Position numbers and translations under genes: made by a program
Notes under the pieces: generated by a model
Seen by the model: only the letters and a program-made list of their open reading frames with translations
The model's database searches: none
What the model was told of the DNA's origin: nothing
From: a virus
Lineage: Duplodnaviria > Caudoviricetes
Direction: 5' to 3' (one strand)
IMG/VR virus record: IMGVR_UViG_3300048762_000252
Location: 1-64,000 of that record
DNA length: 64,000 nucleotides
Part shown: piece by piece, positions 10,901-43,263 of the stretch
Numbering within the stretch: position 1 is the stretch's first letter
Layout: each line of letters opens with the position of its first letter

Positions 10901-12931
10901 GTCAATGCAGCGATGAATTGGTTGCCTGAAGCGCAAGATGCTAATGTATTGCGAGCATGGGTGGCGGGATCAAAAAGAAATAATCCACAAAAATCTAAAC
11001 CGTCGAATAGAAAACCTTGGAGATGTGCTGAGTGTGGAAAAAAGAATCCAAAAGGTGTTGATCGTTGTGAATGCGCTGATGTGAATGAAGGTTATGTATC
11101 TCCAGGAACGAGATGCCATGATTGCGGAGCCACAAAGGAAGATCATACAAAAAGAAAGGCCGGTCCTGGTTATGCTGTCTGTAAGAAATTTGTATTGAGT
11201 CCTGAAGATGGTGGACGGCCAGAACGCAGAAAACTAAAAGAAGGATACAATGATATTGAGCATGGAGACCACGTTACTTTCAATCATCCATTAAGGGGTA
11301 GCGACAAAACTCCACAACAGGGCAGAGGCAAAGCAGTGATGCGTGGCCCAGGCGGTTGGGTAGTGAATATGGGTGGTGCTCACGGCACACCGGGTATCGT
11401 GTCTTCAGACAACTATGTAAGCCATCGTAAAGCCAAGAGCAAAGCTCCAAATTCTCTAACAACGAAGCGATTGGTTGGAGAAGATGAATATGATGACCAT
11501 GTGAAATCATATAATGTATCTGGAAATCCCGCTTCAGATCCAAAAAAAGAATCCGCTAGGAAGAGAAAGAATCAAGCACGCAAAGATCGTGATGATATTA
11601 GGCGTAGCATGGGCTTGACCAAAGTCAAGGGTGCTGTAAGTGGAAAGACTTATTGGGAGTCGGAAGATTCACATGATCCAACCGAATCTCCTGATTATGT
11701 GACACATGAAAACCGATTTGATCCGCCAAAACCTAAACCAAAAAAGAGACGCCAATCTTTAGCAAACATGTATCATCATGCCATGCTTGATATGGGAATG
11801 AAAGCGTATCGTGGATCGGACGGCAAGCTCCGTTATGAATCCGAAAATTGTAATGAATCTGAAGAAATATCTGAAGCCGCCAAATGTTCAAAATGCGGAA
11901 GATCTGTTCATTCGGCAGTCCTCAAACACAAAATAACAAGTACGCCTACATTCAAGAAGCACATTCTTTGCCATGGTTGTTTTGATAAGCAAATCAGTGA
12001 AAATGAATATGAATCCGGCGTGACATATGAAGAGCTTCAAAATGCTGGTTTCAATGAAAGTGAAATCAAAAGAATTTTGGAAATTGACAAAAATTCAACA
12101 CCCTGGAAACGAATGGTAGGAAATATACCAGATAGCATGAGTTACGATATGGATTGGAGAAAACCTGCTCCGAAAGATCGTGGTAATATTGCAACAACAA
12201 CGGTTCCTTTTCGTAAAGAAGAAGTTGATCCAATCATTAGTTCGGCGGTGGGATACATCAACCAACAACTTGAAAATGCTGGTGGGCCGATCACTGAAGA
12301 TTTTTCAGTTCATCAACGCCTTTTGGACAATGGGTTCAAAAAGCACAAAACTGAGAATCAAACACAAGTTTACAGTCATCCAGAGCATGGAGAATTCCAC
12401 ATCAAAACAAGTAATGGAATGCATTCACCAACAGAACATCACAAATCTAATGGTGATGTAGTAGGTTTAAGTCATGTTTCACATTCTTATCTTAATAAAA
12501 TGGGATTGAAACCTTCTAGCAGCATGTCAGAAGAAGAAATGAATGAATGGCGTAACAAAAAAGTTGAAAATTTAAACGTATTATCAAAAAGAGAAATTAA
12601 AAGACGTGAACATAATGGAGGACTTTGCCGGAAGTGTCTTCAACCACATAATAATGCTTCAGGGAATCTATGTTTTAGTTGTGCGTTAGGTGAAGAAGAA
12701 ATGAACGAATGGATTGCCGGAAAGAATTATGACAAACCTTATAAACATTCTAAGCACTGGCGTAGTGAATTTGCAGATCCAGGCGGAAATAGTTCGCTTC
12801 GGGCGGCTTCTAAGTCAAACCCACGAAATAAACCTTGTCCAACTTGCAAGGAACCAAATAAGCTGACAGCAAAAGATGTTGCTCAAAAATACCAGTGCAA
12901 CGACTGTGCTGATAGGGACGAAAGATGCTAA
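7940..12931 (+). CDS. Putative head-internal polyprotein (1663 aa; many Zn-ribbon/basic modules separated by acidic hydrophobic-X-E linkers)
   Basis: TAAATA at 7898 and AGGAG RBS; modular composition; function inferred. Confidence 0.6.
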   Translation: MAIFRDMQETESTDITQYPGYAKLSGEEQKKVAETYTNVYNNNQEKLGYRIAQGIAFATAKQMCEETIGQKMTKMAAGNKCVWCKKTIGATSTCPHCKGEQNSPESYSKRKAVKAVREEVVDEARKSGWKNGIGREQTVHYQSQPGHPGKDGSRCMPACGAGWTLDHLPTNDKSKVTCGSCLQKVNGTGIYKKSMHEDEISEARVNDAQFANHASKEAWKATTKARKSQSYEDHFRAGKLHTAAAKLHDDAAKSKEHQGQAGVHYSIAASNRKYEKGNPNPSKHDPKMWEGQDPAPGLIADCGDAMDETQNPISTRSAKYVCAGCGHSMRGSTTSMMGKRCPACNSYSWKSPVRKEEEDIVDNKISKPGPTYEAQTPYTYRKAEPLPHSGETGGVYAKNVQDLETEKILSKIRPSKTVKEGDAEDFQAKNDALVGMTEDEINEFAISQTSKRFVMKDGVKHRVIGVRDGELVTEPVTKSKQNYKDAHGGHDWVDNYGMKKENEDALASAANPEEGGAAQQLRLNHDKMCAGCGSIHPIDVMCFNGRTHSEAGMGSGDILKQNHQAKGMQGMDAVQMKVEESDPLISAAASYLTNRAKVSGLMESVLPGTGAGEIQKSNLAQKCPNCGASAIEMHQFGSGIRKCACASGDCSCNCGDGKCKCVDGVCKCDDGKCMGAGDILQQNHAVKGMKQATIPQATPQVKEDEIDEALCPRCRGKGCRRCNFHFVPKKEKVPPQVKEDEIDEVHIGFKNLQKKLEGKGHSKESAGNICHAIMIKKYGHAVHEDEAVFTETELKEWETRGAKDNINPDDWNKPEPKPDPNERDCWQCKAGRHHDLKTHEANLRNEEELINRTFSEEVITEAEARLQESIEAVWVENFYPAKPMEEHCGHCSHPQSFHESDGCSTCDECGGFTTESVDENEKKHEICFCGHEYGGHGKGGCKKCKHDGVTDATRAAHQFRKNDYRERFEAEYAEIFAAQQGKINTTLVNAAMNWLPEAQDANVLRAWVAGSKRNNPQKSKPSNRKPWRCAECGKKNPKGVDRCECADVNEGYVSPGTRCHDCGATKEDHTKRKAGPGYAVCKKFVLSPEDGGRPERRKLKEGYNDIEHGDHVTFNHPLRGSDKTPQQGRGKAVMRGPGGWVVNMGGAHGTPGIVSSDNYVSHRKAKSKAPNSLTTKRLVGEDEYDDHVKSYNVSGNPASDPKKESARKRKNQARKDRDDIRRSMGLTKVKGAVSGKTYWESEDSHDPTESPDYVTHENRFDPPKPKPKKRRQSLANMYHHAMLDMGMKAYRGSDGKLRYESENCNESEEISEAAKCSKCGRSVHSAVLKHKITSTPTFKKHILCHGCFDKQISENEYESGVTYEELQNAGFNESEIKRILEIDKNSTPWKRMVGNIPDSMSYDMDWRKPAPKDRGNIATTTVPFRKEEVDPIISSAVGYINQQLENAGGPITEDFSVHQRLLDNGFKKHKTENQTQVYSHPEHGEFHIKTSNGMHSPTEHHKSNGDVVGLSHVSHSYLNKMGLKPSSSMSEEEMNEWRNKKVENLNVLSKREIKRREHNGGLCRKCLQPHNNASGNLCFSCALGEEEMNEWIAGKNYDKPYKHSKHWRSEFADPGGNSSLRAASKSNPRNKPCPTCKEPNKLTAKDVAQKYQCNDCADRDERC

Positions 12932-13809
12932 CTGAAAAATATACAAATTTGGATGACACAAAGGCATACGGTTACAAAGAACATCCGCTTCATAAACATT
13001 TTCGTAACGCTGGATATCATTTGAGTTATTCCAATCACGATGCCGATGGAAATCACACGCATCAATACATAAAGGGGCAACAACCTTCTTCAATAGAGCC
13101 ATCAAGTAAAGATTATCATAGCATTATTACACATCACAATGACAATCCAAAAACAATGAAGTCAAGTTGGAGACACATAGAAAAACTAAAAGGGCATTTG
13201 CATGGCAGAGATCCTTATAAAGATATTAGTGGAACAGGCCATGCTTCATTGAAAGATCATTTAAAATCTGATTCAGATTATCGTAGTGAAGAGACAGATC
13301 CTTTAATTGCGGCGACATTAGGTTATATCGACCAACAGATTGCCAATGCTGGCGGTTCATTACAAACTCTGACTGAAGGCGATGCGGAACATGAAAAATA
13401 CAAAGACCATACAAAAAATCCATATCACCAAATTTTGACTCAACATGGATTCGTTCATAAGTCTACTGAACACAAAAAGAATCGGTTTGCGGCTAACAAT
13501 CCTAAAGCCGATTACACAGAACACCGATATGAACATCCGGGGCACGGAAAATCACATGTTTTGATTACACAAGATCATTCTAAAGGCGGTGGTGGCTATT
13601 CATTTAGTGATGATAAAGGACATTCTTTCATTCATCGTCACGAACAATCGAACGGAATTATGAGTCCTTCGACTGGAAATTCTAAGAACCAGCTTCATCG
13701 GAGTTTGTCTTATCATTATGGCATACCAAAGGGCGTTAAGCCACCGCCATTGACAGCCGCAGAAAAGAAGTATTCTCATTTGAAACCGGAGTATAAGCAA
13801 AACGAATGA
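12925..13809 (+). CDS. His-rich two-module protein, putative head-internal protein
   Basis: Two LxxxG[FY] modules joined by DPLIAATLGYIDQQIANAGG linker shared with the upstream gene. Confidence 0.6.
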   Translation: MLTEKYTNLDDTKAYGYKEHPLHKHFRNAGYHLSYSNHDADGNHTHQYIKGQQPSSIEPSSKDYHSIITHHNDNPKTMKSSWRHIEKLKGHLHGRDPYKDISGTGHASLKDHLKSDSDYRSEETDPLIAATLGYIDQQIANAGGSLQTLTEGDAEHEKYKDHTKNPYHQILTQHGFVHKSTEHKKNRFAANNPKADYTEHRYEHPGHGKSHVLITQDHSKGGGGYSFSDDKGHSFIHRHEQSNGIMSPSTGNSKNQLHRSLSYHYGIPKGVKPPPLTAAEKKYSHLKPEYKQNE

Positions 13810-16394
13810 AACTGGATATCTACAATTCGAAACAGAAGGTCGCTGCCGATAATAAAATGGTCTCTCCTGGCATCACTGATCGTTTTGAGAAAGATGTCGC
13901 AAAAGATGAAGGCGACTACGGAGACATACAGAAGAAATTTGCTCCTGGTCCCACATACGAAACTGAACGTAGAGACAATCCACGATTCAAGAAAAAGTGT
14001 CCTGCCAGCAATGAGAAGCACGATTGGGAATGGGTAGAAAATCATAAACACACTCCTGGTTCGCAACGGATGCTTGGTTTTTGTGATAATTGTGGTGCTG
14101 AACATCCCCGTAACAACAAAAAAATGAAGGAAGAAACCGCTATGAACCTATTGAAAGACATTCTTGCAGAAGCTCAGTCGTTTGATCCTAAGCACACAAA
14201 GCATACCGAAAATCCAATCGCTGATTGCGCTGTGTGCGGAAAAGGCAATCATGTGCCAGCAAAACATTTTGGTCGAGCTTTAGGTGGCGAAAACAATCAA
14301 TCCGTAACTGAATGGTCCGTTGAAGACGAACTAAAAGCTCAAGCGAGAAAGAAGGTGGGAAAAACATCTCAACCTCAATCAGAAAAGTGGTCTGTTGCAG
14401 ATGAACTGAAAGCTCAAGAAAGAGATCGTAAATTCCGAAAAGAAGCTGAAGGTGATTATGAGAAGCCACCGTTTGCTGGTTTTCATAAATGGGCGGATGA
14501 AAGGCAAGACCAAAGAGAAAAGAAACGTGACCGTAGACAAAAAGAATTGGATAAGTGGAATAAAAAACCAATAAAAGAAACCGATGAGTGGCCGCATAAT
14601 CTCGTTTACCCAAATCACAAACCGCATTTCTGTAAGAAGTGTAATCGTTGGGCTGATTACTTAGGCCAACATGGTGCGAAATGTAGACTTGCAGCGGACA
14701 AGGTTGAAAAAGAAAAATTGAAAGAAGCTTTAAAACCAAGCGGTATGTGGAAAGGAAGAGACTGTCATTGGGTTATGGATAATCAAGGAAATATTCATCC
14801 CAAACCATTTCCTACAGCACAGCAAGTGAAACAACAGAGCAAGCAAAAAACAGAAGCAGAGATTCCTGGCAACGACGAAGCTGAAATGTGCCCCGAATGT
14901 CACAAGCTTCATGCTCCATCTGTTCCCTGTCCTGCGAAGAAACTTTTGTTTGGACAAGATGGTGTCAACGAAGACAATCAATATCACAAACATTTAACGA
15001 AAGCAGGATTTAAGAAAAGACAAGGCAATGATTCTGCATACGACCATTCTGATGGTTCAAAAGTGATCTTAAAAAAGGATGGTTCTCATAGCGTTAGTTA
15101 TCCTGCTATTCCTTACGGGGATTTTACAATGAGGGGAACTCGTAGCGGAGATACTCCATCAAAAAATAGAATGGCTCGTTTGAAAGGAACCGATGTAGAT
15201 GATTTAAAATATAATTTGCATCTATCTGGGCATCCAGTTGATACAACATACCGTCCGAAACAGAGAGTTAAGGAAGAAACCATCACAGAGACGAACAAAT
15301 TCACTCACAAAATTTGGACTGGTCCGTCTGGTGTAAAGCAATACGCCGCCAAGCTTCACAAGCACTATCCGAATACGAAAGCTGGTACAGAACATGTCTA
15401 TGTTCATACTGATCATCCAGCGGAACATGTAGCAAATACTCTAAAGAACAAACTTGGGATGTCTGGGTTCACTCCTGGTGGCCGAGGTTGGAGTACTCAG
15501 GAACATAGTGTGCAACATAATCTGAAGAAAAAAGCTGCTGTAACAGAATCCACTCCAGTAGAACCAAAGGTAGTAGGACACTTTATTCAGACACATCTTC
15601 CATCTGGCAAAAAGCATCGTGGAGCGATGATGGACACCCATCTTTCTGAATTGGGTTCTGGTGGGCGTCTATCAACAGGTGAGAAAGTGACGAAGGATCA
15701 CATTCTCAATCATTGGAACGCTCAACAGCCGAAGACTTACAAATATGAATGGGACAAGGAAAATCTTAAAGAAGACGAAAAAGAAACTCGTCCGAAGTGC
15801 CCACACTGCACTTTGCCATTAGATGTTTGTAAGATACATCAACAAAGACAACGCCGCAGTGCGCTTCAACCGGATTCAGATGAAAATGAATGTCCTAGAA
15901 AACGGGAAAAGGAGCGAGATGAAAATTTGGATGAAGCCAAAATAAAGAAGCCAAAGCAATTTGACAAAATGGCTCATGTGCGTGCGATTGCTCGTAATGT
16001 AGTTGGTCAAATTCCAAAAGGCCAAGTCATCGTACCAAAGAAAGACCGCAAACCAAAACATAAAAAAGATCCGTTAGATATCGAGGAGGAAAATTCGATG
16101 GGATTTTCGCAATTCACAGAAGCAGCAGAAACTCCACACGCCCATGCTGCAAGACTACATGATGAAGCAGCGAAACATGCTAAAAGTTCTGCTTCGATGA
16201 TTGACCGACCGTACAAAGATGCGTGTGACGCATCATATGCAACAAAACATCCTGAAATTTCCAAATTCATTCAGCATAACACAATGGGACGCCACTCTGG
16301 TTTTATACCGCACCTTAACGGGCGGGTAGTATTTCATAAAAAGCTGGCGCAAATGCATAGAAATGTTGAAAGTAAGCAGCCATCAGATGTATAA
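13806..16394 (+). CDS. Putative head-internal polyprotein (862 aa)
   Basis: Same modular pattern (MKEE, ILAE, VTE, IKE, LKE, VNE, VKEE, ITE, LDE boundaries). Confidence 0.6.
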   Translation: MKLDIYNSKQKVAADNKMVSPGITDRFEKDVAKDEGDYGDIQKKFAPGPTYETERRDNPRFKKKCPASNEKHDWEWVENHKHTPGSQRMLGFCDNCGAEHPRNNKKMKEETAMNLLKDILAEAQSFDPKHTKHTENPIADCAVCGKGNHVPAKHFGRALGGENNQSVTEWSVEDELKAQARKKVGKTSQPQSEKWSVADELKAQERDRKFRKEAEGDYEKPPFAGFHKWADERQDQREKKRDRRQKELDKWNKKPIKETDEWPHNLVYPNHKPHFCKKCNRWADYLGQHGAKCRLAADKVEKEKLKEALKPSGMWKGRDCHWVMDNQGNIHPKPFPTAQQVKQQSKQKTEAEIPGNDEAEMCPECHKLHAPSVPCPAKKLLFGQDGVNEDNQYHKHLTKAGFKKRQGNDSAYDHSDGSKVILKKDGSHSVSYPAIPYGDFTMRGTRSGDTPSKNRMARLKGTDVDDLKYNLHLSGHPVDTTYRPKQRVKEETITETNKFTHKIWTGPSGVKQYAAKLHKHYPNTKAGTEHVYVHTDHPAEHVANTLKNKLGMSGFTPGGRGWSTQEHSVQHNLKKKAAVTESTPVEPKVVGHFIQTHLPSGKKHRGAMMDTHLSELGSGGRLSTGEKVTKDHILNHWNAQQPKTYKYEWDKENLKEDEKETRPKCPHCTLPLDVCKIHQQRQRRSALQPDSDENECPRKREKERDENLDEAKIKKPKQFDKMAHVRAIARNVVGQIPKGQVIVPKKDRKPKHKKDPLDIEEENSMGFSQFTEAAETPHAHAARLHDEAAKHAKSSASMIDRPYKDACDASYATKHPEISKFIQHNTMGRHSGFIPHLNGRVVFHKKLAQMHRNVESKQPSDV

Positions 16395-16460
16395 ATACAA
16401 ACGGCTGTATGTAAAGTAGTGAGCTTCACATACAGCCTGAACACAATGGAGTATGCCATC

Positions 16461-17099
16461 ATGCCTGAAGACAATTTATCACCATTACATTTTGAAGGGA
16501 TGCCATGCCGGAAGTGTGGATCTACAAGAAGGTATATGCGGTATAAAAATTGTGTTAATTGCCATCATGACGCAGATCGAAAATGGCAGCAAGAAAATTT
16601 GGAAATTAAAAGAAAATGGCAACAAACAAATCCAGAAAAACGTCGTAAATCAAAACGAAAATGGCAACAAACAAATCCAGAAAAGGTGCGAGAATCAAGT
16701 CATAAATCATGTCGAAAGTGGAGACAAGCAAATGCAGAAAGGTGTCGTGAGCGTAATCGCATTTGGCGATTAGCAAATTCGAAAACGATGCGGGAGTGCA
16801 ATCGTGCCGCTGCCGTTAAAGCCAGAGCAAAACGAAAACAAGCTGTAGGTTCACATACTACACAGGAATGGATCGATCTAAATGAGCAGTATGGATATCA
16901 TTGTCTTCGTTGTAAAAAACATGAGTCGGAATTTCCAATAAATTCAAGGACAGGACGACCGTTTCCAATCGAACAAGATCATATCATTCCGCTTTCAAAA
17001 GGTGGTACAAATTGGATTACGAACATCCAGCCACTTTGTCATGATTGTAACGGAATGGGTGGCAAAGGTATAAATACTACTGACTTTCGGTCTGAGTAA
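16461..17099 (+). CDS. HNH homing endonuclease
   Basis: CLRC...DHIIPLSKGGTNWITNIQPLCHDCN; KRKWQQTNPEK repeats; TATAAATA at 16390; GGAG before 16461. Confidence 0.9.
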   Translation: MPEDNLSPLHFEGMPCRKCGSTRRYMRYKNCVNCHHDADRKWQQENLEIKRKWQQTNPEKRRKSKRKWQQTNPEKVRESSHKSCRKWRQANAERCRERNRIWRLANSKTMRECNRAAAVKARAKRKQAVGSHTTQEWIDLNEQYGYHCLRCKKHESEFPINSRTGRPFPIEQDHIIPLSKGGTNWITNIQPLCHDCNGMGGKGINTTDFRSE

Positions 17100-17101
17100 A
17101 A

Positions 17102-17332
17102 ATGAAAACATTTAGTGCTTTTCTTCTGGAAAATTACGATGCGGTTTTGAAACAGCACGGCTATGAGAATCCGCAAAAGGGAGATGACGGACACATTACG
17201 TATTCGAAGAATCCCGCTGATCAAATCCTGATTGACGTTCCTGGCAAGGAATGGCATCACATGGTAAAAGGCGTCGTCAAAATTGTCGGAAACATCAAGG
17301 ACGATTCGCTGGAGCGGTTTCTCGCCAGATAG
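17102..17332 (+). CDS. Small internal-protein-like product with T4 IP-type capsid targeting leader
   Basis: N-terminus MKTFSAFLLE resembles T4 IP leader MKTYQEFIAE; LKQHGY module. Confidence 0.6.
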   Translation: MKTFSAFLLENYDAVLKQHGYENPQKGDDGHITYSKNPADQILIDVPGKEWHHMVKGVVKIVGNIKDDSLERFLAR

Positions 17333-17348
17333 CCCTTTCCTGGCTCGT

Positions 17349-17425
17349 AGGAAGCCCTAGAAACGCCAAAGGTCCAAGGACGTATCCAAGGACCCTTTTT
17401 GGTTTCGATGCGCTGTAGGGCTTCT
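17349..17425. terminator. Long imperfect inverted repeat between convergent transcription units
   Basis: GAAGCCCT...CCAAAGGTCC / GGACC..TTTGG...AGGGCTTC. Confidence 0.55.
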
Positions 17426-17453
17426 AAGGCGCTGCGGGAATTAATGGAGATTT

Positions 17454-17717
17454 TTACTCCATTTCCGGTCCAAATCCCATGATGAAATCTTCGGCGGCGA
17501 GAATTTCGTCGGCTTCTTCGTCATCTTCAGGTTGTCTGCGAAGCTGCCGTCGAACAAACGACCGATGCAGGCGTAGCTGTCCGTCTTCCGGGTCTTCGTT
17601 TTCGCCGTCGTAATCATCGGCTTCCTGTTGATTCAGTTGGTAAAGATCATCATCGATTTCGTAGGTGCCGTATTCGTCAAAACGGTCGTCAAGGCTTCTG
17701 TCGTCATCGAATTCCAT
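17454..17717 (-). CDS. Small very acidic hypothetical protein
   Basis: GGAG RBS; D/E-rich 87 aa. Confidence 0.7.
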   Translation of the reverse strand: MEFDDDRSLDDRFDEYGTYEIDDDLYQLNQQEADDYDGENEDPEDGQLRLHRSFVRRQLRRQPEDDEEADEILAAEDFIMGFGPEME

Positions 17718-17727
17718 TTTGTCTCCC

Positions 17728-17931
17728 TTACCAAGTCATCATTTCAATCAGGTTGGTGACGCCGATTTCCGCTTTGCGCTGAACATGATCGGCAGCATCA
17801 TAAAGCCCTTGGACATTTGCCAGCCGGATCAGAGCGGCCACGGTCTGCGGCTTGTTGTTCAGGCTATCGTAGAAGGCCCGAAGCCATTCCAGTTGTTCGG
17901 CGGTGCCGTATTGTGCTTGAGGGGCGTTCAT
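17728..17931 (-). CDS. Hypothetical protein
   Basis: GGAG RBS, operon packing. Confidence 0.65.
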   Translation of the reverse strand: MNAPQAQYGTAEQLEWLRAFYDSLNNKPQTVAALIRLANVQGLYDAADHVQRKAEIGVTNLIEMMTW

Positions 17932-18094
17932 TATTCTCCACCTGGATTGCGGTGCTGGCTTGGCTGGTTTGTTACGCCGGGAAGTACCGAAATCGTGATC
18001 AATTGCTTGGATTCAGACAAAATAATTCCAGGAAGGAGCACAGGGAGGGATACAACGGTCACTTCTACGAAAAACGGAATGAAGTACGTGCGTG

Positions 18095-18310
18095 TCATTT
18101 GGTCTCCAAGGTGTGAATCATGATCTTTTTGCACGCCTGGAGAGTACCGATCCAGCGGACACCCTTCGTGCCAGTGATACCATACACATTCTGTGTGTTG
18201 CCACTCAATCCCAAAGATCCATTGATGATTGTGCGACCGGATGGCTTGCCGTTTATCAGCACGTCGAAGTTGCCGGTGACAACTTTCTCGAATGTGATTA
18301 CGTTCTTCAT
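18095..18310 (-). CDS. Hypothetical protein, leaderless
   Basis: TTGCTT-18-TAATGT promoter 6 nt before ATG. Confidence 0.7.
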   Translation of the reverse strand: MKNVITFEKVVTGNFDVLINGKPSGRTIINGSLGLSGNTQNVYGITGTKGVRWIGTLQACKKIMIHTLETK

Positions 18311-18384
18311 GTCTTTACATTAGCACATAGATGTATCAAAAAGCAATAGATCCAGAAAATTTAATTCTGGAGTGGGTTTCTTCA

Positions 18385-18681: not shown

Positions 18682-19100
18682 ATTCAGAGTATACCAGAAA
18701 GATGCATCTATTGTCAATGGGTTCGCAAAAAATTTATTCATACGTTGGCGAATGGCAGGAAGTTCTTTTTGTACCTTATCGTAGGCGGTTTCAGCTTGTT
18801 CTCTGGTGGTAACGATGCCTTCTCGTGCTTGGACGGCGATGATGCAATCCACCATGAGCTTCCGGCGATTCACCGGATTGTCCAAAATTTTGCGAAGATT
18901 TACCCGTTTGTTCTTCATAGGTATCTTAATGGGGTGGTTGATGCAACACGACATCGAGAGATTCTGATTTTGGTAGAGTTCGTGACATCCACCAGTTTTT
19001 TGCACAATCAAGACCCGGTTTGCGCTTAGGAAGCAAAGACAGCAAGCTCATTACAATCATGGTGGCGATATTTAGTTTCCAAATTAGAGGCATAAAGTCC

Positions 19101-32696: not shown

Positions 32697-34505
32697 ATGG
32701 CATATAATTTGTTCGGGTTTTTATTTCGTGATAAAAAGAAAGGTACGCAAGAGCAACCTCTATCATTTGCGCCACCATCGAACGATGACGGTGCCATTGT
32801 CATTGAACAAGGTGGTGCGTTCGCATCTGTAATCGATCTAGACGGCATTGTCAAGAATGAAATCGAACTTATCACCAAGTATCGTGAAATGTCACAACGT
32901 TCCGAAGTTGAAGGTGCAATTAGTGAGATCGTCAACGAATCCATCGTCACAGAAGAAGAGAAGTCACCTGTAGCTTTGGTTGCAGATAAGCTGAATTATT
33001 CTGAAGACATTAAAAAGAAAATCACAGACGAATTCGAGAATGTTTTAAACATGCTGGACTTCAACAATGAAGGACAAGACATTTTCCGGCGCTGGTACAT
33101 TGACGGGCGACTGTACTTTCACATGGTGATTGATCCACAGAACCCACGTGATGGCATTCAAGAAATCCGATACATTGATCCACGCCGCATCAAGCCAGTC
33201 ATTGAAGTTGAAACCTTCATATCGCAAGATGGCGTACCGATGCAGACAGAAAAGCAGCGGTACTATGTTTACAATCAATTTGGAACAGATGCTACTACAG
33301 CGACCACGGGTGTGAAAATTGCATGGGATTCGATTTGTTATGTTCATTCAGGCATCCAAGAAACAAACAATACGATGATTTTGGGCTATCTTCACAAAGC
33401 TTTGAAGCCATCAAATATGCTTACAATGATCGAAGATGCCAGTGTCATCTATCGTCTCTCACGTGCTCCCGAGCGTCGTATTTTCTACATTGATGTTGGA
33501 AACCTTCCAAAGTTGAAGGCCGAACAGTATCTCAAAGACATCATGTCGAAGTATAGAAACAAGATGGTCTATGATGCTACGACAGGCGAAATTCGAGAAG
33601 ATAAAAAGTTTCTCAGCTTCATGGAAGACTATTGGCTACCACGTAGAGAAGGCGGCAGAGGCACGGAAATCAGCACGTTGCCGGGTGGTGAAAATCTTGG
33701 TGAGATGGCTGACATCGAATACTTCAAAGAGAAATTATATCAGGCTCTCAATGTGCCGGTCAGTCGCTTGAAGAGTGAATCAACCATGAGTTTCGGTGGA
33801 CAGGGAGAAGTCATTACCCGTGAAGAAGTAAAATTCGGCAAGTTTGTTTATCGTATTCGCAATCGGTTCACTGAGTTATTTGATGTATTGCTTTCTACAC
33901 AGTTGATGTTAAAAGGTATCATTGCGAAGGAAGATTGGAGAGTAATTCGTCAGAAAATTTTCTACAGCTTTTTGAAAGATACCTATTACTCCGAAATGAA
34001 AAATTTGGAAATTTTACAAAGCCGTATTGCCGCAGTTCAAAATTTCATGCAAGTTGCTGGCAAGTTGGTTTCGTGGGAATGGGTGCGGCGTAATCTCTTG
34101 ATGCAGACTGACGATGAGATGAAACAACTCGACAGTCAAATGCTTAAGGAAAAGTCTGATCCTCGTTATCAATCTCTTGAAGCCATGACTGGTGGTATGA
34201 TGCCTCCGGGTGGCGGTATGCCGGGTGATATGGGCGGCGGTATGGATCAAGGTATGGGTGGTGGCGCAGGCGAAGAAGGTGGAGAAGAAGGTGGGCAAGA
34301 AGGTCCAGAACAGGATGGACAGGAACAAGGTGATGAAGACGAACAGCAACAAGGTCCACCATCGCCAGGACCGACACAAGAACAAATTCCTGCAACTGGC
34401 GGTGATGATGGTGCAAGATCAGGAGAAGAAGAAGAACCTCTTGACCCGGACGATCTGCCCACAGAACGAGTAACCAGAAATATAGAGCGGCTGTTCCAAC
34501 GTTAA
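32697..34505 (+). CDS. gp20: Portal protein with acidic low-complexity C-terminal tail
   Basis: WYIDGR, IYRLSRAPERRIFYIDVGNLPK, EDYWLPRREGGRGTEISTLPGG. Confidence 0.97.
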   Translation: MAYNLFGFLFRDKKKGTQEQPLSFAPPSNDDGAIVIEQGGAFASVIDLDGIVKNEIELITKYREMSQRSEVEGAISEIVNESIVTEEEKSPVALVADKLNYSEDIKKKITDEFENVLNMLDFNNEGQDIFRRWYIDGRLYFHMVIDPQNPRDGIQEIRYIDPRRIKPVIEVETFISQDGVPMQTEKQRYYVYNQFGTDATTATTGVKIAWDSICYVHSGIQETNNTMILGYLHKALKPSNMLTMIEDASVIYRLSRAPERRIFYIDVGNLPKLKAEQYLKDIMSKYRNKMVYDATTGEIREDKKFLSFMEDYWLPRREGGRGTEISTLPGGENLGEMADIEYFKEKLYQALNVPVSRLKSESTMSFGGQGEVITREEVKFGKFVYRIRNRFTELFDVLLSTQLMLKGIIAKEDWRVIRQKIFYSFLKDTYYSEMKNLEILQSRIAAVQNFMQVAGKLVSWEWVRRNLLMQTDDEMKQLDSQMLKEKSDPRYQSLEAMTGGMMPPGGGMPGDMGGGMDQGMGGGAGEEGGEEGGQEGPEQDGQEQGDEDEQQQGPPSPGPTQEQIPATGGDDGARSGEEEEPLDPDDLPTERVTRNIERLFQR

Positions 34506-34954: not shown

Positions 34955-34970
34955 ACTAAATACTTTTATT

Positions 34971-35252: not shown

Positions 35253-35255
35253 TGA

Positions 35256-35894
35256 ATGTCTACAATACACATCTTATTTGGTACTTCATCTTTTGTTAAA
35301 AATAGAGTATTGGAAACGCTAAGTGGAAAATCAAATTTCACGGCGACTATACCTATTTCTCAGACAACTTATCTCGACGGTAAGGTTCCACAAACCGGAA
35401 CCAATCTAGGAACAATGGGTTATCGAATTGGAGCATCAGATAGAAATCCTGGCGAAATTTCTAATGAGATGGAAGGCTTTGTGGTGTTAAATCAAACCAA
35501 TGGAAAAGTGTTTCAAACCATTGGTGGACAATGGTGTGCTTTAGGATCGATTGGAAATTTAGATTTTCTTGATCCTACTTTGCTTCCATCATGGTACAAT
35601 AATATTCCAAATGGACCTTCTGCATATCGAGTAGGATGTTTTGGTCTTGACGAATCAAATTATAGTGGCGCTGCGGATGGATATCCAAATGGATTTCTTG
35701 TGGAAAATCAATCCACCGGAAATGCTTTTGTAGTATCTGGAGGAACGGAAACCGATGGAGTTTGGTCTGGTGGAATATGGGGAACCGGGACTTTTTCAAA
35801 AGAACTTCAAACTGCATGGTTAGAGAATGAAGGTATCACCTATATTAGATCGGGTAATATGGTTTGCATAACAGGAAAGGCAAAAATTGCATAA
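35256..35894 (+). CDS. Hypothetical protein with internal duplication (GFxVxNQxxG twice), probably structural
   Basis: ORF in late block. Confidence 0.7.
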   Translation: MSTIHILFGTSSFVKNRVLETLSGKSNFTATIPISQTTYLDGKVPQTGTNLGTMGYRIGASDRNPGEISNEMEGFVVLNQTNGKVFQTIGGQWCALGSIGNLDFLDPTLLPSWYNNIPNGPSAYRVGCFGLDESNYSGAADGYPNGFLVENQSTGNAFVVSGGTETDGVWSGGIWGTGTFSKELQTAWLENEGITYIRSGNMVCITGKAKIA

Positions 35895-35948
35895 TGCAAA
35901 GGGTAGCAACGAAAAGAGATAAATATTAATTTGGGAGAGCTATATCAC

Positions 35949-38090
35949 ATGAGTAAATCAATCGTCGGACTAATCGCAGAGAATCAATCAAGTGAAGCTG
36001 TCTCTGTCGTCAACAAGGCTTTAGCAAAGAAACTCTTGTGTGCTATTTCTGAACAAGCAAGTGAAGTCGCACGACAGGCGTATGGCACTCTCGAAGAGTA
36101 CTATGGTGGTGATGAACAACCGGACTACACGAACAATTCGGACAGCGCTTACGCTACATTCTTTCAAAACGCTTTACGCAAGTTTGGTGTTACGGGACCA
36201 GAAGACTTCAAAGATGATGTTACGAAACAACGATTTTTCGACTATGTAGACCATAATTGGAGGGCGCAAGACTCCGTACAGAATCCAATTCAAGGCGCTA
36301 ATGGCGGCAGCATGGAAAATGGCACACAGACACAACTTCCCGCTCCTGCTGCTCCACCACAAGCTCCAATAGCTCCTACGCAGGATTCTACACCAACTAC
36401 GGCCCAAGGTAATGATCCTAGTGTGGCTACAATGGCTCCAGCAGGGCCTACAATCAATCAAACGGCTCCAATGGGACAGCAAGGCTCAGATCCAACATTG
36501 AATGGCGCACAGAACCAGCAAACGTTTACTGGTCAGGGTCCAGCCGCCGATCAATATGCGGGTGGTTCTCAACAGCAGAGTAGCGGCTCCAATTTTGGTC
36601 TTCCAGATCAAAATGCTTGCCCATATTGCAAAGGTTCTGGTAAGGCAGCTTGCCCGACTTGTGGCAGACCTCACGGACTTGATAATCAACAACCGGGCGC
36701 TCCAGGCGGCGAAGATCAAGATCCAAATCTTGAAATTGGCCCAGAAGGTTCCGAAGACGGAATGGATGATGAACAGGGTCTCGAAGGTGGCGAACAAGAT
36801 CCTAATGGAGAAAATATCGACGGTGGTATGGGTGACGAAAGCGGCATGGAAGGCGAAGAAGGCGGCGATGAAATGGGTGCCGATCAACAGACTCCAGGCG
36901 GTGAAGGTGAAGATGTCGATGATCCATTTGACGATGAAGATGCCTATTCTATCGACGCAAGCGACTTTAATGGTGCTGGCGGCGAAGATGATGGTACTGG
37001 CGGTGCTGCTGGTGGCGAAGGTGGCGAAGATTTAGGTGACGACGAAGGTGGCAATTTAGGCGGTGAAGGTGAAGAAGAAGGCAGCGAAGATTTAGGTGAC
37101 GATGAAACCGGAGATGAAGAAGGTGACGAAGATCTAGGTGCCGATGACGAAGGTGGCGAACCTGATGATGAAGAAGACCCGGATTTAGAAGTTGGTGCTG
37201 AAGGTGCTGGTGATGAAGAAGGTGACGATGAAGCAGTAGTAGCTCCTAAAAAGGCTCCATTTGGTAAAGCACCCGCAAAAGTAGCTGAAGATTTTGGATT
37301 CGGATTAGACAATGCCGAAGATGCTGTGTTTCTCACTGAAGCTGGTTTAATGATGCAAGCAAAACCAGAGCCAGTCGATCCAGGTTTAAACAAAATCATC
37401 ACTTATGTCCAGCAACAATTGAGCAAGATCAAGAAACTTCGTAATACAATGCTCATGCAGCTTCGTAGACAACGTGCAGTGATTAAGAAAGACCCGGCAC
37501 TCGGACCTGAAGAAAAGATGGAAGCTTTGAAGCAACTGGCAATGATGGCAAAAGACAATCGCAAGTTCTTTAAGAGTCAAGCTAAACTCGTGAAAGCAAT
37601 GTTTACTGGCAAGTTGGCTGGTGAAGATGTAGGTGCTCCAGAAGAAGGTGCTCCAGAAGGCGAAGAAGGAATGGAAGGCCAAGACCAAGAGCAGCCACAG
37701 AAAGGTGGATTCCCACCAGTTGAAGGTCAAAACCTGAAGATCCGGGATGATGAAGGCGAAGGCGAAAATGGCGAAGAACCAGAAGTAGAAGACGATGGAG
37801 AATCCGATGAGAAACAACCGGCAAATAATTTTCCACCTAAGAAAAAAGGATTTCCACCAGCCGCCAATGACGATGAAGATGAACCAGAAGCAGATGATAA
37901 CGGCAAGCAAAAGTTTCCCAAAGCCAAAGGCATGACGGAAGACGAACTACAAGAATATGAAAGTTCAGCAGCAATTGAAGGCAAGATCAAAATGCTGCAT
38001 ATGCAGATCTCTTCGCAAGGCGACCCTGGCGGTAGGCGCAGAGCAGCATTGAAAAGTCTGAAAAACCAATTGGCGATGGCACGGAGTTAA
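35949..38090 (+). CDS. Prohead core protein-like (gp67-like N-terminus, long acidic Gly/Asp/Glu region)
   Basis: N-terminal helix resembles T4 gp67; position between gp20 and gp21. Confidence 0.65.
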   Translation: MSKSIVGLIAENQSSEAVSVVNKALAKKLLCAISEQASEVARQAYGTLEEYYGGDEQPDYTNNSDSAYATFFQNALRKFGVTGPEDFKDDVTKQRFFDYVDHNWRAQDSVQNPIQGANGGSMENGTQTQLPAPAAPPQAPIAPTQDSTPTTAQGNDPSVATMAPAGPTINQTAPMGQQGSDPTLNGAQNQQTFTGQGPAADQYAGGSQQQSSGSNFGLPDQNACPYCKGSGKAACPTCGRPHGLDNQQPGAPGGEDQDPNLEIGPEGSEDGMDDEQGLEGGEQDPNGENIDGGMGDESGMEGEEGGDEMGADQQTPGGEGEDVDDPFDDEDAYSIDASDFNGAGGEDDGTGGAAGGEGGEDLGDDEGGNLGGEGEEEGSEDLGDDETGDEEGDEDLGADDEGGEPDDEEDPDLEVGAEGAGDEEGDDEAVVAPKKAPFGKAPAKVAEDFGFGLDNAEDAVFLTEAGLMMQAKPEPVDPGLNKIITYVQQQLSKIKKLRNTMLMQLRRQRAVIKKDPALGPEEKMEALKQLAMMAKDNRKFFKSQAKLVKAMFTGKLAGEDVGAPEEGAPEGEEGMEGQDQEQPQKGGFPPVEGQNLKIRDDEGEGENGEEPEVEDDGESDEKQPANNFPPKKKGFPPAANDDEDEPEADDNGKQKFPKAKGMTEDELQEYESSAAIEGKIKMLHMQISSQGDPGGRRRAALKSLKNQLAMARS

Positions 38091-38091
38091 T

Positions 38092-38514
38092 ATGAATTTC
38101 TTAGATTACATCAAACAAGGCGATGCAGTAAATGCTACGGTACTGATTGAAACCGTACTGAAGCAAAAAACACTTGCACACATTAAGGAACAACGCTCTG
38201 TGGTTGCCGAAATTACCTACAACTTGGCCAAGCAAGAAGATATTGTTGAAGCCGCACATCCGTGGTCGGGCGAATTGACAAAACGTGGGTATAAGAAGAT
38301 TGGAACCCGCCATACTAATGAAAAAAATCTTGGAAGCGTAACAAACCATGATTATTCTCATCCAAATGGATATAAAATCACTTTGCGTAAACATAATCAA
38401 GGTACAGGACATGGTTTCCATATTCAAAGAGCTAATGATGAAAAATCAACTATCTTTGGTGGCGATTTAGGATCGTTGAAATCTAACTTACATTTGATTC
38501 ATAAAGAGGAATGA
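38092..38514 (+). CDS. gp67: gp67-like prohead core protein fused to His-rich module
   Basis: FLDYIKQGDAVNATVLIETVLKQKTLAHIKEQRSVVAEITY resembles T4 gp67. Confidence 0.6.
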   Translation: MNFLDYIKQGDAVNATVLIETVLKQKTLAHIKEQRSVVAEITYNLAKQEDIVEAAHPWSGELTKRGYKKIGTRHTNEKNLGSVTNHDYSHPNGYKITLRKHNQGTGHGFHIQRANDEKSTIFGGDLGSLKSNLHLIHKEE

Positions 38515-41165
38515 AAATGAAAACTCTACTTGAACAAGAAAACGGTGCTCTAGAAGTAACTTCTACTATTGAGAGTATGTTAAAGCAAAAAACTCTTGAA
38601 GCTATTGAAGAAACTCGAAAACAAGTCGCTGCTGATACCTTTAGCATGAATTTTGAATCTGCCGATTCAGAACTTCAAGAAGCTATTGAAGCTGCTTACA
38701 ATGGCGAAGAGCAATTGGACGAATGGCCGAAGGCAGATACCACCGTTGACCATCCACTAGCAAAAGAACTGGCATCAAAAGCTCTTTATAACCACAAAGA
38801 ATACCATAATGGAAATCATGATGCCACTCATGGTGGATGGGCAATGCATGATCTTCATACATGGGCAAAAAACTATGCCAGGAAAAAAGATAAGGGTGTC
38901 TACGATAAGGAACTAGCGGTTAAGGGCCTCACCCACGCTATTAAAAATTCTGAAGCATCGACCTTTGGAAAACCACACGGAACAAAACACGGGCAGAAAA
39001 TTACCGGCGCTACACGCACGCAAGCCGCTCGCCACTTGCTCCCGCATGTGGAGAAGTTGATGAAGCAACACCAAAAGCCGGTGAAGGAAGAAAAAATAGT
39101 CGAAACAACCAAAATTTCTAAATCAGAAGATCCAATGGGCGTAGCTGGCACTCTTGGATTAACGACGAAAGATCCATGGGAAGAGAATAAAAAGCGAGCA
39201 GCCTTACCCATAGGTTTGTGGAAACACCCAAGCACTAGTAAGAAGAAAAAGTTTAGCCTGCTCTACAAACCAAAAAAAAAATCTAAAGCTCGTCTGACCG
39301 AAAAGCCGGTGACTGAAGAAGAAACAATAGATCAACATTGCGGTGGGTGCAAAAAGGATTTAACAAAGCATCATGGACAAATTTACCGCTTTTCAGTGCC
39401 ATCTATGCCGATAGGCAACTATCGTAGTGTAGATTTTTGTTCAACTAAATGCGCCACTTTGGATGCAATGAAAAATAAAGTGAATGAAACAGAAGCTCAT
39501 TATACCGGGCACAAAGATGGAAAAGTTGAACGATTTTCTTCAAATACACCGCCAACACAGAAATCACATGGACACCTTTATAATGCTGTGACTGGCCCTT
39601 TCAAAACAAAACGGGCAGCAGATTGGGCTGTGAAAAATCAAGGCAACCCACATTTTCATCATGTCAATGATGCAGAAAAATTATCTAAACTTGAAGTAAA
39701 CGAGCTTTATAGTGATTCTTTGATTCGTCATCTTGATCGTGATCCAAGAGCATCGGAACAAAAACCCAAAACAAACACAACATTAGCAATATTGAAAAAA
39801 CTTCATGCAGCCAATTATCCAAAGTTTGAAGTTTCACCAGATATACAAAAAGAAGAAGAATTTAATGAAGGTAGAAAACCTCATAAAAATCCATTAATGC
39901 ACGCACGGCTGACCGATCATGGATTTGAATATAAGGGAACGAATAGTGGATTTCAACATTACAAAAATTCAGAAGGACACAGAATAAAACACAAATTTCC
40001 AACACCGAACGGTAATCATAGTTTTACCCATGAAGATCCATCTGGAAAAGTAGTTTGGAAAAGTCCTTCTGCGAGCGATACAGAAATTCATAAGCATCTT
40101 GAAAAGCATTTTCCGACAGGAAAACTCGGGGAAGCCCGTGATCCATTCGGATTTGGTAAAAAACATTTGGCACAGTTGGGTGTAGTAGATAAGATAATTA
40201 AAAAGCAAGTCGCTGCAAAAAAGACACCTTCAACATTTCAAAGAGATCTTGATGATTGGCGGAAACATGATCGTGGCGCAATACCAAAAGGTAAATTAGG
40301 TGAAGAGGACATTACTGAATTTCAAGGGTATGGTCCAGCCGATCCGAACCATCCACTAAATCGTAATTTGGCACAAAATAGATCAAATAGTCCTATTACT
40401 CGTAAAGTAGCACCGTCGAAATTTGGGTATAAACCCGTTGATCCAAATCATCCATTAAATCGAACCGAAGCCGAACAACCACACAAATTAGATACTCCAT
40501 CACCGGAAGAAGCAAAAAAACATTTTAAATGGGCGCAACAAGTTCGTACTAAGGCCAGCAAAGGTCAAGGTGAATTTGATAATAAATGGAAGTCTGCAAA
40601 AACAGATAAAGAAAAACATGCACTGAAAGTACATGCATTTCAAAACAATTATAACATTCCTTGGGAACAAGGTGTTAATGTTCGAAGCAGATCTCCAATT
40701 CATGACTTTGCTACAGAAGAAGAAGTAAACGAAGAATATCTCACAGAAATTAGTCAAGCGATTCCGTGGCCTGCTCGTTCCAAGCATTTAGGAAGCTATA
40801 CAAGAAAGAAAGGTGAGGAAGGAGCATATAATCATCCTGAAGGGCACAAGCTTGAACTTCATAAAGATGCTGAAGGAAAACCAAATGGTGAATGGACACA
40901 TACCACAAAAGATGGAAAGGTAAAGAAGGGTACGGGTATTGGAAATTTGCATGTACATTTGATGAAAACACATGGAAATTTCGATGAAAGAGTAAAACAT
41001 CATATGCAAAACACTGGTGTTAACAGTCTGTCTCACGCAATGGGCGCACTCTCTTACAAACACCACAAAAAACACGAAGGAGATCCTGAAGATAACGCTG
41101 TAGAGTACAAAGCAATGCATAAAGCCGATATGAACCTCTCAAAGCGGGATCGAGGAGTAAGGTAA
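38511..41165 (+). CDS. gp67-anchored putative head-internal polyprotein (884 aa)
   Basis: IESMLKQKTLEAIEETRKQVAADTF, then basic modules split by LDE/VKEE/VTEE/VNE/FNE/LGE/ITE. Confidence 0.6.
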   Translation: MKMKTLLEQENGALEVTSTIESMLKQKTLEAIEETRKQVAADTFSMNFESADSELQEAIEAAYNGEEQLDEWPKADTTVDHPLAKELASKALYNHKEYHNGNHDATHGGWAMHDLHTWAKNYARKKDKGVYDKELAVKGLTHAIKNSEASTFGKPHGTKHGQKITGATRTQAARHLLPHVEKLMKQHQKPVKEEKIVETTKISKSEDPMGVAGTLGLTTKDPWEENKKRAALPIGLWKHPSTSKKKKFSLLYKPKKKSKARLTEKPVTEEETIDQHCGGCKKDLTKHHGQIYRFSVPSMPIGNYRSVDFCSTKCATLDAMKNKVNETEAHYTGHKDGKVERFSSNTPPTQKSHGHLYNAVTGPFKTKRAADWAVKNQGNPHFHHVNDAEKLSKLEVNELYSDSLIRHLDRDPRASEQKPKTNTTLAILKKLHAANYPKFEVSPDIQKEEEFNEGRKPHKNPLMHARLTDHGFEYKGTNSGFQHYKNSEGHRIKHKFPTPNGNHSFTHEDPSGKVVWKSPSASDTEIHKHLEKHFPTGKLGEARDPFGFGKKHLAQLGVVDKIIKKQVAAKKTPSTFQRDLDDWRKHDRGAIPKGKLGEEDITEFQGYGPADPNHPLNRNLAQNRSNSPITRKVAPSKFGYKPVDPNHPLNRTEAEQPHKLDTPSPEEAKKHFKWAQQVRTKASKGQGEFDNKWKSAKTDKEKHALKVHAFQNNYNIPWEQGVNVRSRSPIHDFATEEEVNEEYLTEISQAIPWPARSKHLGSYTRKKGEEGAYNHPEGHKLELHKDAEGKPNGEWTHTTKDGKVKKGTGIGNLHVHLMKTHGNFDERVKHHMQNTGVNSLSHAMGALSYKHHKKHEGDPEDNAVEYKAMHKADMNLSKRDRGVR

Positions 41166-41825
41166 ATGGCAATTCAAAATCCAAATTCATCCGGGCAAGG
41201 TCATGATCCTGATCACGAAAAAAATCCGTACCATGCAACACTTGTGAAACATGGTTATGAATATTCACATTCTACTCCTGTAAACCATTCTGCATATTCA
41301 GTATCTCCATCACACCCGGATTATAAGAATCAGGACATTCGTGTTCACCATTCTTATAAACACAAAGATTTAAAGGACCATGTTGTAGGTGTGTCTCCTT
41401 CAAAAGATGGAGGTCACAAATGGGATGTTCATAAATTGGGTCAAGGAACAAGTTTCACCGGAACTGGCTGGTCAGCGTTAGACAAACATCTGAAAGGTCA
41501 CCTTGCACGTGCAAAAAAGAAAGCAAATGCAGTTGAAGGGTTAATTCGTTCTAAACTTAACACCGCTCTCACTGAAGCAAAAAAAAATGTGGCTACATCT
41601 TTATTTGAAACCATCACAACAATGCCGACAATGCCAAAATCTTTGTCGTCAGGAGTAGATAAACATCAACAAAAACGTCAACAAATTCAAGCACTCCAAG
41701 TAAAGATTACTGCGCTGCAAGGTAAAATAGCCACATCAAAAGATCCAACTGCGATGAAACAACAACTTGCTATTCAGAAATCAAAATTAGAAACGGCGAA
41801 ATTGGAACTTGCAGTGGTGAAATAA
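41166..41825 (+). CDS. His-rich module + gp67-like helix + coiled coil
   Basis: NPYHATLVKHGY module; VEGLIRSKLNTALTEAKKNVATSLFE. Confidence 0.6.
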   Translation: MAIQNPNSSGQGHDPDHEKNPYHATLVKHGYEYSHSTPVNHSAYSVSPSHPDYKNQDIRVHHSYKHKDLKDHVVGVSPSKDGGHKWDVHKLGQGTSFTGTGWSALDKHLKGHLARAKKKANAVEGLIRSKLNTALTEAKKNVATSLFETITTMPTMPKSLSSGVDKHQQKRQQIQALQVKITALQGKIATSKDPTAMKQQLAIQKSKLETAKLELAVVK

Positions 41826-41826
41826 T

Positions 41827-43263
41827 ATGCCTTGGCAAGAGTCAGATGTCGAAAAGCATTTCAAAGGGCTATCTTCTAAAGAGAAAAGACAATGGTGTCA
41901 TGTCGCAAACGGGGCCTTAGAAGCTGGAGATGACGACGGAACGGCCTGTCACAAAGCTAATGGTGTGGTTAAAAAAAATCGCATGGAATCTGAAATACAA
42001 GAAGGTGAAAGATTTTACGATCAACGAACAAAATTGTTTAATCACCCGGCTAGACATGACGGCGCATCTCATGGGCAATATGATAACTATGTAAAAGGAC
42101 TTCACGATTTACATGATGGGTTATCTAAAAAAATAGGACCATTAGTTAAGAAGTATGAGAATAACAATAAAACTCATCCATCGTCAGGACAACCATATAG
42201 CAAACATGCAAAATTTCTTAAAGTGGGGTTAGCAGCAGCGGCACAACATTTGTCTGGTGTTTATGGAAAACATGCTGTTGACAAAGCGGACGCCAACGTT
42301 GTCGGTGCAATAAACGCCGATAATGCGTTAAATATGATGCATCAACTGAGCGACCATTTGGCACAGCATTTTAAAATACACGAATCTATTGAATCAAAGC
42401 TGTATGCGAAAGCCATCGCAATGGTCGAAGCTGTCCGTATGCAGCAAATCGCTGCTATATTTGAAGGCGCACTTGACAATCAACCTGAAGGTATCCTACA
42501 CAAAGCTGGTTGGACTCAAACAAAAGAAAAAGGCGACAATAAAATTTATACTCATACTGCACAAGATCATCGAACCTGTGCAGCTTGCAAATCTGGAATT
42601 CGGCACGATCATAATCCCATTGATAGTATGCATGGTCATGAGATTCATGTGAGTAAAAATGGAAATTGGCGGCATTACGACGGCGACAAATGTCTAGGTG
42701 CCGGTTTCACTGGCGAGAAGATGCGAAAGCATTTGGGTGAAGCTGTCCTAAACGAAGCCGATCCTAAACCACGGGTAGAAGTAGACAATGCTGGAAAGCC
42801 TGTAATACCAAATCGCCAACATTACTTGATGTACTTTCAGGACATGCAAGCTGGACATATCAAAGATGCCTTGCGTAGCGCCCACGAACGATGGGCCGCA
42901 GCAGAAAAAGTTGCATTAACTGCTCGTCAAGCATCTTTGGCAAATAAGAGTCAGTCTGTTAAAGACCAAGCAGCAATGGCGGCGGCGCATTTACAAGCTC
43001 TTGGTATTGAGTTGTCTGTCGGTAATTTGGTACTGAAGCAAAAGCAAAACAAGATGGGAAAAGAAGTTAAAAAGCAAAATGTGAAAATCAAAAGTCATGC
43101 TAGAACAGTTGGAAAAGTTGTAAACACTGTTATGAAAGGATCAAGTCCGCTTGCGAAGATGTTAGCCAAAGGTGTTGTGAAAGCTTTCACACCAAAGCCT
43201 GTTACTGTTAACAAAACAAAGAATTATTTGGCGACACCGAAAGCACCAAGAGTTTCAAAATAG
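41827..43263 (+). CDS. Modular core/internal protein with ChaB-like N-terminus
   Basis: PW...LSSKEKRQWCHVANGALEAGDDDGTACHKANGVVKK; IESKLYAKAIAMVEAVRMQQIAAIFE. Confidence 0.55.
   Translation: MPWQESDVEKHFKGLSSKEKRQWCHVANGALEAGDDDGTACHKANGVVKKNRMESEIQEGERFYDQRTKLFNHPARHDGASHGQYDNYVKGLHDLHDGLSKKIGPLVKKYENNNKTHPSSGQPYSKHAKFLKVGLAAAAQHLSGVYGKHAVDKADANVVGAINADNALNMMHQLSDHLAQHFKIHESIESKLYAKAIAMVEAVRMQQIAAIFEGALDNQPEGILHKAGWTQTKEKGDNKIYTHTAQDHRTCAACKSGIRHDHNPIDSMHGHEIHVSKNGNWRHYDGDKCLGAGFTGEKMRKHLGEAVLNEADPKPRVEVDNAGKPVIPNRQHYLMYFQDMQAGHIKDALRSAHERWAAAEKVALTARQASLANKSQSVKDQAAMAAAHLQALGIELSVGNLVLKQKQNKMGKEVKKQNVKIKSHARTVGKVVNTVMKGSSPLAKMLAKGVVKAFTPKPVTVNKTKNYLATPKAPRVSK

Follow-up and report, generated by a model that had tools for sequence, protein, structure and literature searches.

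Why should the head and tail genes of a T4-like phage be interleaved with ten versions of what looks like a single, histidine-rich unit? The question is raised by the first 64 kb (the window) of a 166,602-bp IMG/VR virus record, IMGVR_UViG_3300048762_000252, from a phage known from a metagenome, in which eight genes on the plus strand (lettered A, B, C, E, H, I, J and K) hold ten segments built on one pattern: a helix ending in LxxxG[FYW], strands, and a closing helix. All ten lie where the initial annotation had placed them and show the pattern that it described; it had taken them for HicA/dsRBD-like modules carried as cargo in the capsid. With a probability of roughly two in three, we read the segments as copies of one small folded domain (7-12 kDa) that is head cargo and works like the internal proteins of T4. 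The capsid half of the earlier proposal thus stands, on four independent features (a position in the slot of the gp67/gp68 genes, targeting sequences of the T4 type, gp67-like leaders, and protease-type sites that spare the module interiors), and the HicA/dsRBD half does not.

Kinship of the ten segments

The ten modules of the window, with borders placed by eye, are the following.

12302-12508, plus strand: A1, near the C-terminus of protein A, with an ITE site before it and MSE and MNE sites after it
12982-13206, plus strand: B1, first module of protein B, a borderline copy
13417-13722, plus strand: B2, founding member of a conserved subfamily
14976-15233, plus strand: C1, inside protein C, flanked by VNE and ITE sites
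17129-17329, plus strand: E1, a borderline copy
38257-38505, plus strand: H1
39891-40112, plus strand: I1, flanked by FNE and LGE sites
40779-40976, plus strand: I2, which fits the pattern and has weak sequence support
41166-41507, plus strand: J1, of the largest subfamily, including a conserved N-terminal NPNSSGQG extension
42478-42747, plus strand: K1, with a Cys-containing insert, which fits the pattern only

Three more copies lie outside the window, in minus-strand open reading frames (ORFs) at 68843-70696, 81369-82463 and 94666-95949, which brings the count for the genome to 13 diverged copies. The modules have a mass of 7.3-11.6 kDa and, for most, an isoelectric point of 8.3-10, and their histidine content is 11.8%, as against 2.9% in the long ORFs of the genome. 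Many His, Tyr and polar residues are invariant within each subfamily, which suggests a binding or metal site. Residues of about 110-306 of protein K, K1 included, have no counterpart in its closest relative (L002). Additional copies proposed in F, in Y and at a second site in C were rejected, being weak pairwise matches that a broad hidden Markov model (HMM) did not confirm.

Because the segments had been picked by their motif, we relied on tests that are independent of that choice. When HMMs were built with one protein left out at a time and run against the 701 ORFs of the window, the top match was C1 (3.5e-6), I1 (1e-4), H1 (4e-4) or J1 (6e-4) in the respective searches; B2 and E1 were also the best match, at values that were not significant (E 0.14 for E1), and A1, K1, B1 and I2 were not recovered. 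An HMM whose seed consisted solely of foreign stand-alone proteins, and whose iterations ran over foreign sequences and the six-frame translation of the genome, placed B2, H1, I1 and X2, a copy outside the window, below 1e-6 (H1 at 5e-10, I1 at 2e-8 and, from the foreign J seed, B2 at 1e-8). The ten best matches of the genome to the unbiased HMM are all modules, I2 among them at rank 7 (E 0.13) and B1 at rank 10.

If the likeness arose from a His/Lys-rich composition and from the picking of motifs, and not from common descent, segments of similar composition should score as the modules do. We took as an empirical null 120 segments, consisting of shuffled modules and of non-module pieces of the same proteins, whose maximum hhalign score was 19.8. 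Above all of them stand A1 (21.8, against the foreign B2 profile), C1 (24.7), H1 (24.1), I1 (20.9) and B2, as do X1 and X3 outside the window; B1 is borderline (18.8 against the foreign J profile, empirical P about 0.03), as is E1 (18.1, empirical P 0.03-0.07). Compositional likeness would account for I2 (12.6) and K1 (13.6), which fall inside the null, and for the failure of the leave-one-out models to find A1 and K1. It cannot account for the foreign J-type and foreign B2-type profiles, both free of window sequence, which match each other with an hhalign probability of 95% and an E of 3.3e-8, nor for the module-only top ten of the unbiased HMM. This alternative is scarcely credible for the family as a whole and is refuted for at least six copies: A1, B2, C1, H1, I1 and J1 are family members as judged by tests against foreign-only profiles. 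Pairwise comparison with phmmer joins A to B2 (1e-8) and H1 to I2 (0.003), J1 matches the foreign J HMM at 3e-37, and B2 has 14 foreign orthologues. A foreign HMM of J-type sequences alone detected no other window module directly, and profile-profile comparison and iteration were required to connect them. K1 was recovered by none of the sequence tests (leave-one-out, unbiased HMM, empirical null).

Predicted fold, range of the family and comparison with HicA

An AlphaFold2 model of residues 1-126 of J, computed from 72 aligned sequences that include nine window paralogues, has a mean predicted local distance difference test (pLDDT) of 95.9 and a predicted template-modelling score of 0.86. It comprises a short N-terminal segment, a helix (23-28), five strands (31-40, 58-66, 72-78, 84-90 and 96-99) and a second helix (102-125). 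Protein B, modelled with 14 orthologues and no J-type sequences, reaches a pLDDT of 84-96 over B2 and shows a helix (168-173), five strands and a helix (254-265), the elements following in the same order as in J; the B1 region of this model is of low confidence because there is no alignment depth there. Of 48,161 chains, the same two rank highest for the J model and for the B2 model, and 14 of their top 50 entries coincide. The two subfamilies are thus predicted to have the same fold, which is helix, five strands, helix in place of the alpha-beta-beta-beta-alpha arrangement first proposed.

This architecture bears on the most tempting identification, namely that the modules are derived from HicA or dsRBD proteins as inactivated RNase toxins that bind RNA or serve as decoys for toxin-antitoxin partners. 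Their likeness to HicA is limited to a first helix ending in LxxxG[FYW], as in the toxin, and to the order of elements, with a helix on either side of a sheet. The module is about twice the size of HicA, with five strands in some 100 residues in both models where HicA has three in some 60, and it is without the GSH catalytic motif, whose absence from the modules the initial annotation had correctly noted. The Pfam HicA_toxin profile (PF07927) gave no hit at E ≤ 1 in the ten modules, nine carrier proteins or 72 family members, and nothing in the six-frame translation of the whole genome even at E ≤ 10, though 13 of the 14 control genomes were positive. The structure matches listed by Foldseek and in the VIA wide and VIA second-look searches include no HicA or dsRBD chain. 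The conserved His past the first helix occupies different strand positions in the two subfamilies, shifted by one between J (YSHSTP) and B2 (GFxHxST). No HicB-like gene is adjacent, the neighbours being head and tail genes, homing endonucleases and other carriers. A HicA/dsRBD origin is therefore very improbable, and a tempting but wrong label is removed. We likewise rejected a pair of HxT motifs of the 2H-phosphoesterase kind in the J subfamily, since its second invariant pair reads H-x-Y and the domain is only half as large.

Sequence searches of the modules against Pfam, PHROGs and PDB returned no match, Foldseek found nothing at E ≤ 1e-3 in PDB or BFVD, and the ESM Atlas gave no usable match; a tblastn search with protein H against cultured phage records was also negative. 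A profile search of 1.84 billion representatives, by contrast in outcome, recovered 297 proteins at E ≤ 1e-3 and 140 at E ≤ 1e-10, and the roughly 300 cluster representatives are all unnamed and nearly all viral. A search for related loci with protein J alone found nothing, and a narrower J-type alignment found them. Among 185,579 species genomes, the J-type domain occurs in one, a metagenome-assembled genome of Pseudomonadota. One 243-kb T4-like contig has a J-type ORF placed between gp21 and gp22; in other phages the domain forms the C-terminus of proteins adjoining tail sheath genes, or stands alone as proteins of 100-130 aa, and one foreign protein of 904 aa holds both B2-type and J-type modules. 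A high-GC viral contig (L007, L009; 5411-8546, plus strand) encodes three tandem paralogues with a common N-terminal region, DLE..G..IG.E...SWEKFNA.RK, and differing C-terminal parts, one of which is a J-type domain; an unrelated phage thus seems to have a leader-plus-cargo arrangement as well.

Capsid-targeting signals, protease-type sites and the proposed fate of the modules

The eight carrier genes form two co-oriented blocks on the plus strand. A, B, C and E lie between gp13 and gp14, and H, I, J and K, with the module-free gene G, fill the space between portal and prohead protease (35931-43263).

7940-12931, plus strand: gene A, 1663 aa
12925-13809, plus strand: gene B
13806-16394, plus strand: gene C, 862 aa
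17102-17332, plus strand: gene E, 76 aa, in which E1 is the whole cargo
32697-34505, plus strand: portal gp20 (phrog_213, 3e-197), the upstream boundary of the G-H-I-J-K block
35931-38090, plus strand: gene G, acidic low-complexity sequence and coiled coil after a leader, no module
38092-38514, plus strand: gene H
38511-41165, plus strand: gene I, 884 aa
41166-41825, plus strand: gene J
41827-43263, plus strand: gene K
44124-44777, plus strand: gp21-type prohead protease (phrog_207, 4e-76), the presumed processing enzyme

The slot between portal and protease is the one that T4 gives to gp67 and gp68 (PF17634) and that cyanophage S-PM2 gives to a 58-aa ORF. In T4 the prohead core consists of gp22, gp21, gp67, gp68, Alt and about 1000 copies of the internal proteins (IPs) IPI-III; gp21 degrades gp22, gp67 and gp68 and removes the propeptides of the IPs, and the trimmed IPs remain with the DNA and are injected (PMC9958956). 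In T-even phages, the IPs have only a targeting sequence in common and are viewed as diverse anti-restriction or defence-countering proteins (PMC3012670).

Signals of both kinds are present on the carriers, together with a late promoter.

17069-17076, plus strand: T4-type late promoter box TATAAATA; the start of gene E follows 26 bp downstream
17102-17131, plus strand: capsid targeting sequence of E (MKTFSAFLLE), of T4 IP type, directly before E1
35946-36110, plus strand: gp67-like leader of G, aligned with the leaders of H and I
38092-38256, plus strand: gp67-like leader of H, ending in IVE just before H1
38511-38678, plus strand: gp67-like leader of I (phmmer, H versus I, 1.7e-5 over residues 9-91)
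41517-41612, plus strand: gp67-like helix of J, situated between the module and a coiled coil (P 0.004 by hhalign to the leader profile)

T4 IPI-III resemble the modules in being small, mostly basic and variable behind a conserved signal, MKT[FY]xxF..E (in NC_000866, MKTYQEFIAE for IPII and IPIII and MKTFKEF for IPI). Their 10-residue signal is removed after Glu by gp21, and E has exactly this layout, as have the foreign B2 orthologues, which begin MKTFTQYLKE-G, MQTFKQYLTE-G, MKSFLSFIKE-G or similar, directly before the domain. In protein B, the B2-type domain is preceded internally by ...SLQTLTE-G, and the X1 carrier begins MKTYRQLQDE. Only three ORFs of the 166-kb genome have an IP-type start (E, the carrier of the copy at 94666-95949, and a 650-aa protein at 49814), and two of the three carry a module. 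Unlike in T4, the cargo domain of this phage, which has no detectable similarity to the IPs, is multiplied 13 times, and most copies are part of polyproteins, the largest of 1663 aa, or follow a gp67-like leader that is longer than the IP signal.

That leader, of about 45 residues, is common to G, H and I, and the leader of H is 82-84% identical in foreign proteins bearing different cargo. It aligns with the S-PM2 ORF, which lies between g20 and g21, at an hhalign P of 0.0013; its best E against Pfam GP67 is 0.1 (13 bits, against a cut-off of 27). The counterparts in T4 and S-PM2 are short and free of cargo, whereas here the helix is fused to modules or to long polyproteins. The initial annotation called the carriers late genes, which the promoter box supports directly for E and co-orientation with head and tail genes supports for the others; the box has eight matches in the window where 1.6 are expected, and other matches precede terL, gp22 and the major capsid gene.

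Three side observations concern the same leaders and carriers. A helix motif, DP(L/I)I..(A/S)..Y(I/L).QQ(I/L).N.GG, precedes A1 and B2 and has one more copy in A (plus strand, 9650-9760, 12200-12300 and 13260-13390, in proteins A and B). In a foreign protein (P0173) it is the N-terminus (MSDPLIVATLDYINQQ...), directly before a B2-type domain, and this placement makes a third type of targeting leader a possible role for the motif. Protein A (about 8590-8760) also has a second cargo unit, a helix pair around HFRAGKLHTAAAKLH, which it shares with protein C, where a weaker version stands at the end (16180-16300). The unit follows an H-type leader in two foreign proteins (P0020, P0022), as the Cys-rich, zinc-ribbon-like unit of A does in another (P0021). 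To judge from these sequences, cargo is shuffled behind conserved leaders.

The site recognised by T4 gp21 is Leu/Ile-x-Glu, and such a site is visible in the T4 IP sequences that were read. In the carriers, sites of the form [ILVMF]xE number 2 in 1033 module residues and 113 in 4968 residues outside, and shuffling leads one to expect 7.6 within the modules (P about 0.01). A hydrophobic-x-Glu site lies no more than 25 residues upstream of the module in 12 of 12 internal modules, and protein B stops exactly at a conserved YK(M/Q)NE, beyond which its orthologues run on into further modules. Could these proteins, then, be purely scaffold or core components like gp22, gp67 and gp68, which fill the prohead, are degraded and leave before DNA entry? 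Such a role would agree with the core-gene slot, the gp67-like leaders, the many protease-type sites, the acidity of G and the coiled coils of G and J. It would not explain why the modules are conserved, confidently folded and nearly without protease-type sites, why the same domains occur as stand-alone proteins or beside tail sheath genes instead of core genes, or why E and the B2 orthologues carry the short targeting sequence used by T4 proteins that are retained. We consider a purely structural role unlikely.

As internal cargo, the modules would pass through four steps. Carrier proteins would be made late, and would be drawn into the prohead core by the 10-residue, IP-type sequence (E), by the gp67-like helix at the N-terminus (G, H and I) or behind the module (J), or by being built into a long polyprotein (A, B, C and K). 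The gp21-type prohead protease would then cleave the linkers behind the Glu of their hydrophobic-x-Glu sites and free the protease-resistant modules, which would remain with the packaged DNA and enter the cell alongside it; at 7-12 kDa the units would be comparable to mature IPI*, a size suited to passing the tail. Several points weigh against this account. No N-terminal targeting sequence is recognisable in A, B, C, J or K; the match of the leader to gp67-type proteins is weak at the values given above; the A-B-C block lies between gp13 and gp14, outside the core-gene slot; hydrophobic-x-Glu is a short motif and the module borders were set by eye; and I2 and K1 stay within the empirical null. 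Moreover, since the phage is known only from a metagenome, we infer packaging, cleavage and injection of the modules from sequence.

The internal head proteins of T4 include the restriction inhibitor IPI* and the RNA-polymerase modifier Alt, and such proteins are the first of a phage to meet the host; to our knowledge, almost nothing is known of them outside the T-even phages. By analogy with IPI*, our preferred guess is that the free modules would act as diversifying early binders for anti-defence or host takeover, the alternatives being neutralisation of DNA charge or metal binding through the conserved His. A bolder version, in which a virus-restricted new fold family is an arsenal of injected effectors, its more than a dozen copies made as protease-cut polyproteins and each tuned to a different host target, is a tentative proposal that we think more doubtful than probable; if true, it would be an 'effector polyprotein' strategy in a T4-like phage, with units sized to the tail channel.

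In giant phages, proteases related to gp21 are known to recognise short motifs and to cleave behind Glu, often at many places in one protein (PMC5694885, PMC9026906). The inner-body and ejection proteins of phiKZ, 201phi2-1 and SPN3US share with the present system these repeated cuts after Glu and the existence of paralogous families among ejected proteins (PMC5694885, PMC9026906); they differ in having A/S-x-E sites and long propeptides and in lacking any sequence relation to the module domain, and the 167-kb T4-like virus described here is no jumbo phage. What is new here is the cargo domain and its packaging as strings of modules. One unannotated family, with about 300 clusters, a confident model and no solved relative, is tied to three head-targeting devices and to protease-type linkers, which supplies a signature by which capsid cargo can be sought in the sequences of uncultured phages, and a candidate pool of anti-defence proteins; natural multi-cargo polyproteins could also inform T4-based protein delivery.

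Surrounding genes

The plus strand of the window is a T4-like morphogenetic module with homing endonucleases scattered through it. The nearest cultured relatives are cyanomyoviruses, at about 60% identity for gp21. Where one position is given, it marks the gene.

6240-6983, plus strand: gp13-like adaptor
24186, plus strand: gp14
24881, plus strand: gp15
25896, plus strand: small terminase
26486, plus strand: large terminase
28253, plus strand: sheath
31167, plus strand: tube
45788, plus strand: gp22 scaffold
47423, plus strand: major capsid protein
5390, 7013, 16419, 23481, 31795, 34514, 43285 and 48938, plus strand: homing-endonuclease-type genes

The eight homing-endonuclease-type genes (GIY-YIG, LAGLIDADG and HNH/EndoVII) are unusually dense among the head and tail genes. 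A candidate for a protease delivered in the capsid is the 650-aa protein with an IP-type start (49814-51766, plus strand; MQTFFQFTE), whose gene comes right behind that of the major capsid protein. The N-terminal third of this protein is rich in His, and it contains a SprT-like metalloprotease domain (PF10263, 4.7e-14, with an HEMIH motif). An ORF of about 1800 aa (3-5399, plus strand), which lies directly upstream of the gp13-like gene and is open at the 5' end of the window, consists almost wholly of tandem repeats of 15-17 residues (KTQTGLSRIQVTTPG and variants), with 1.2% acidic residues and a net charge of about +187.

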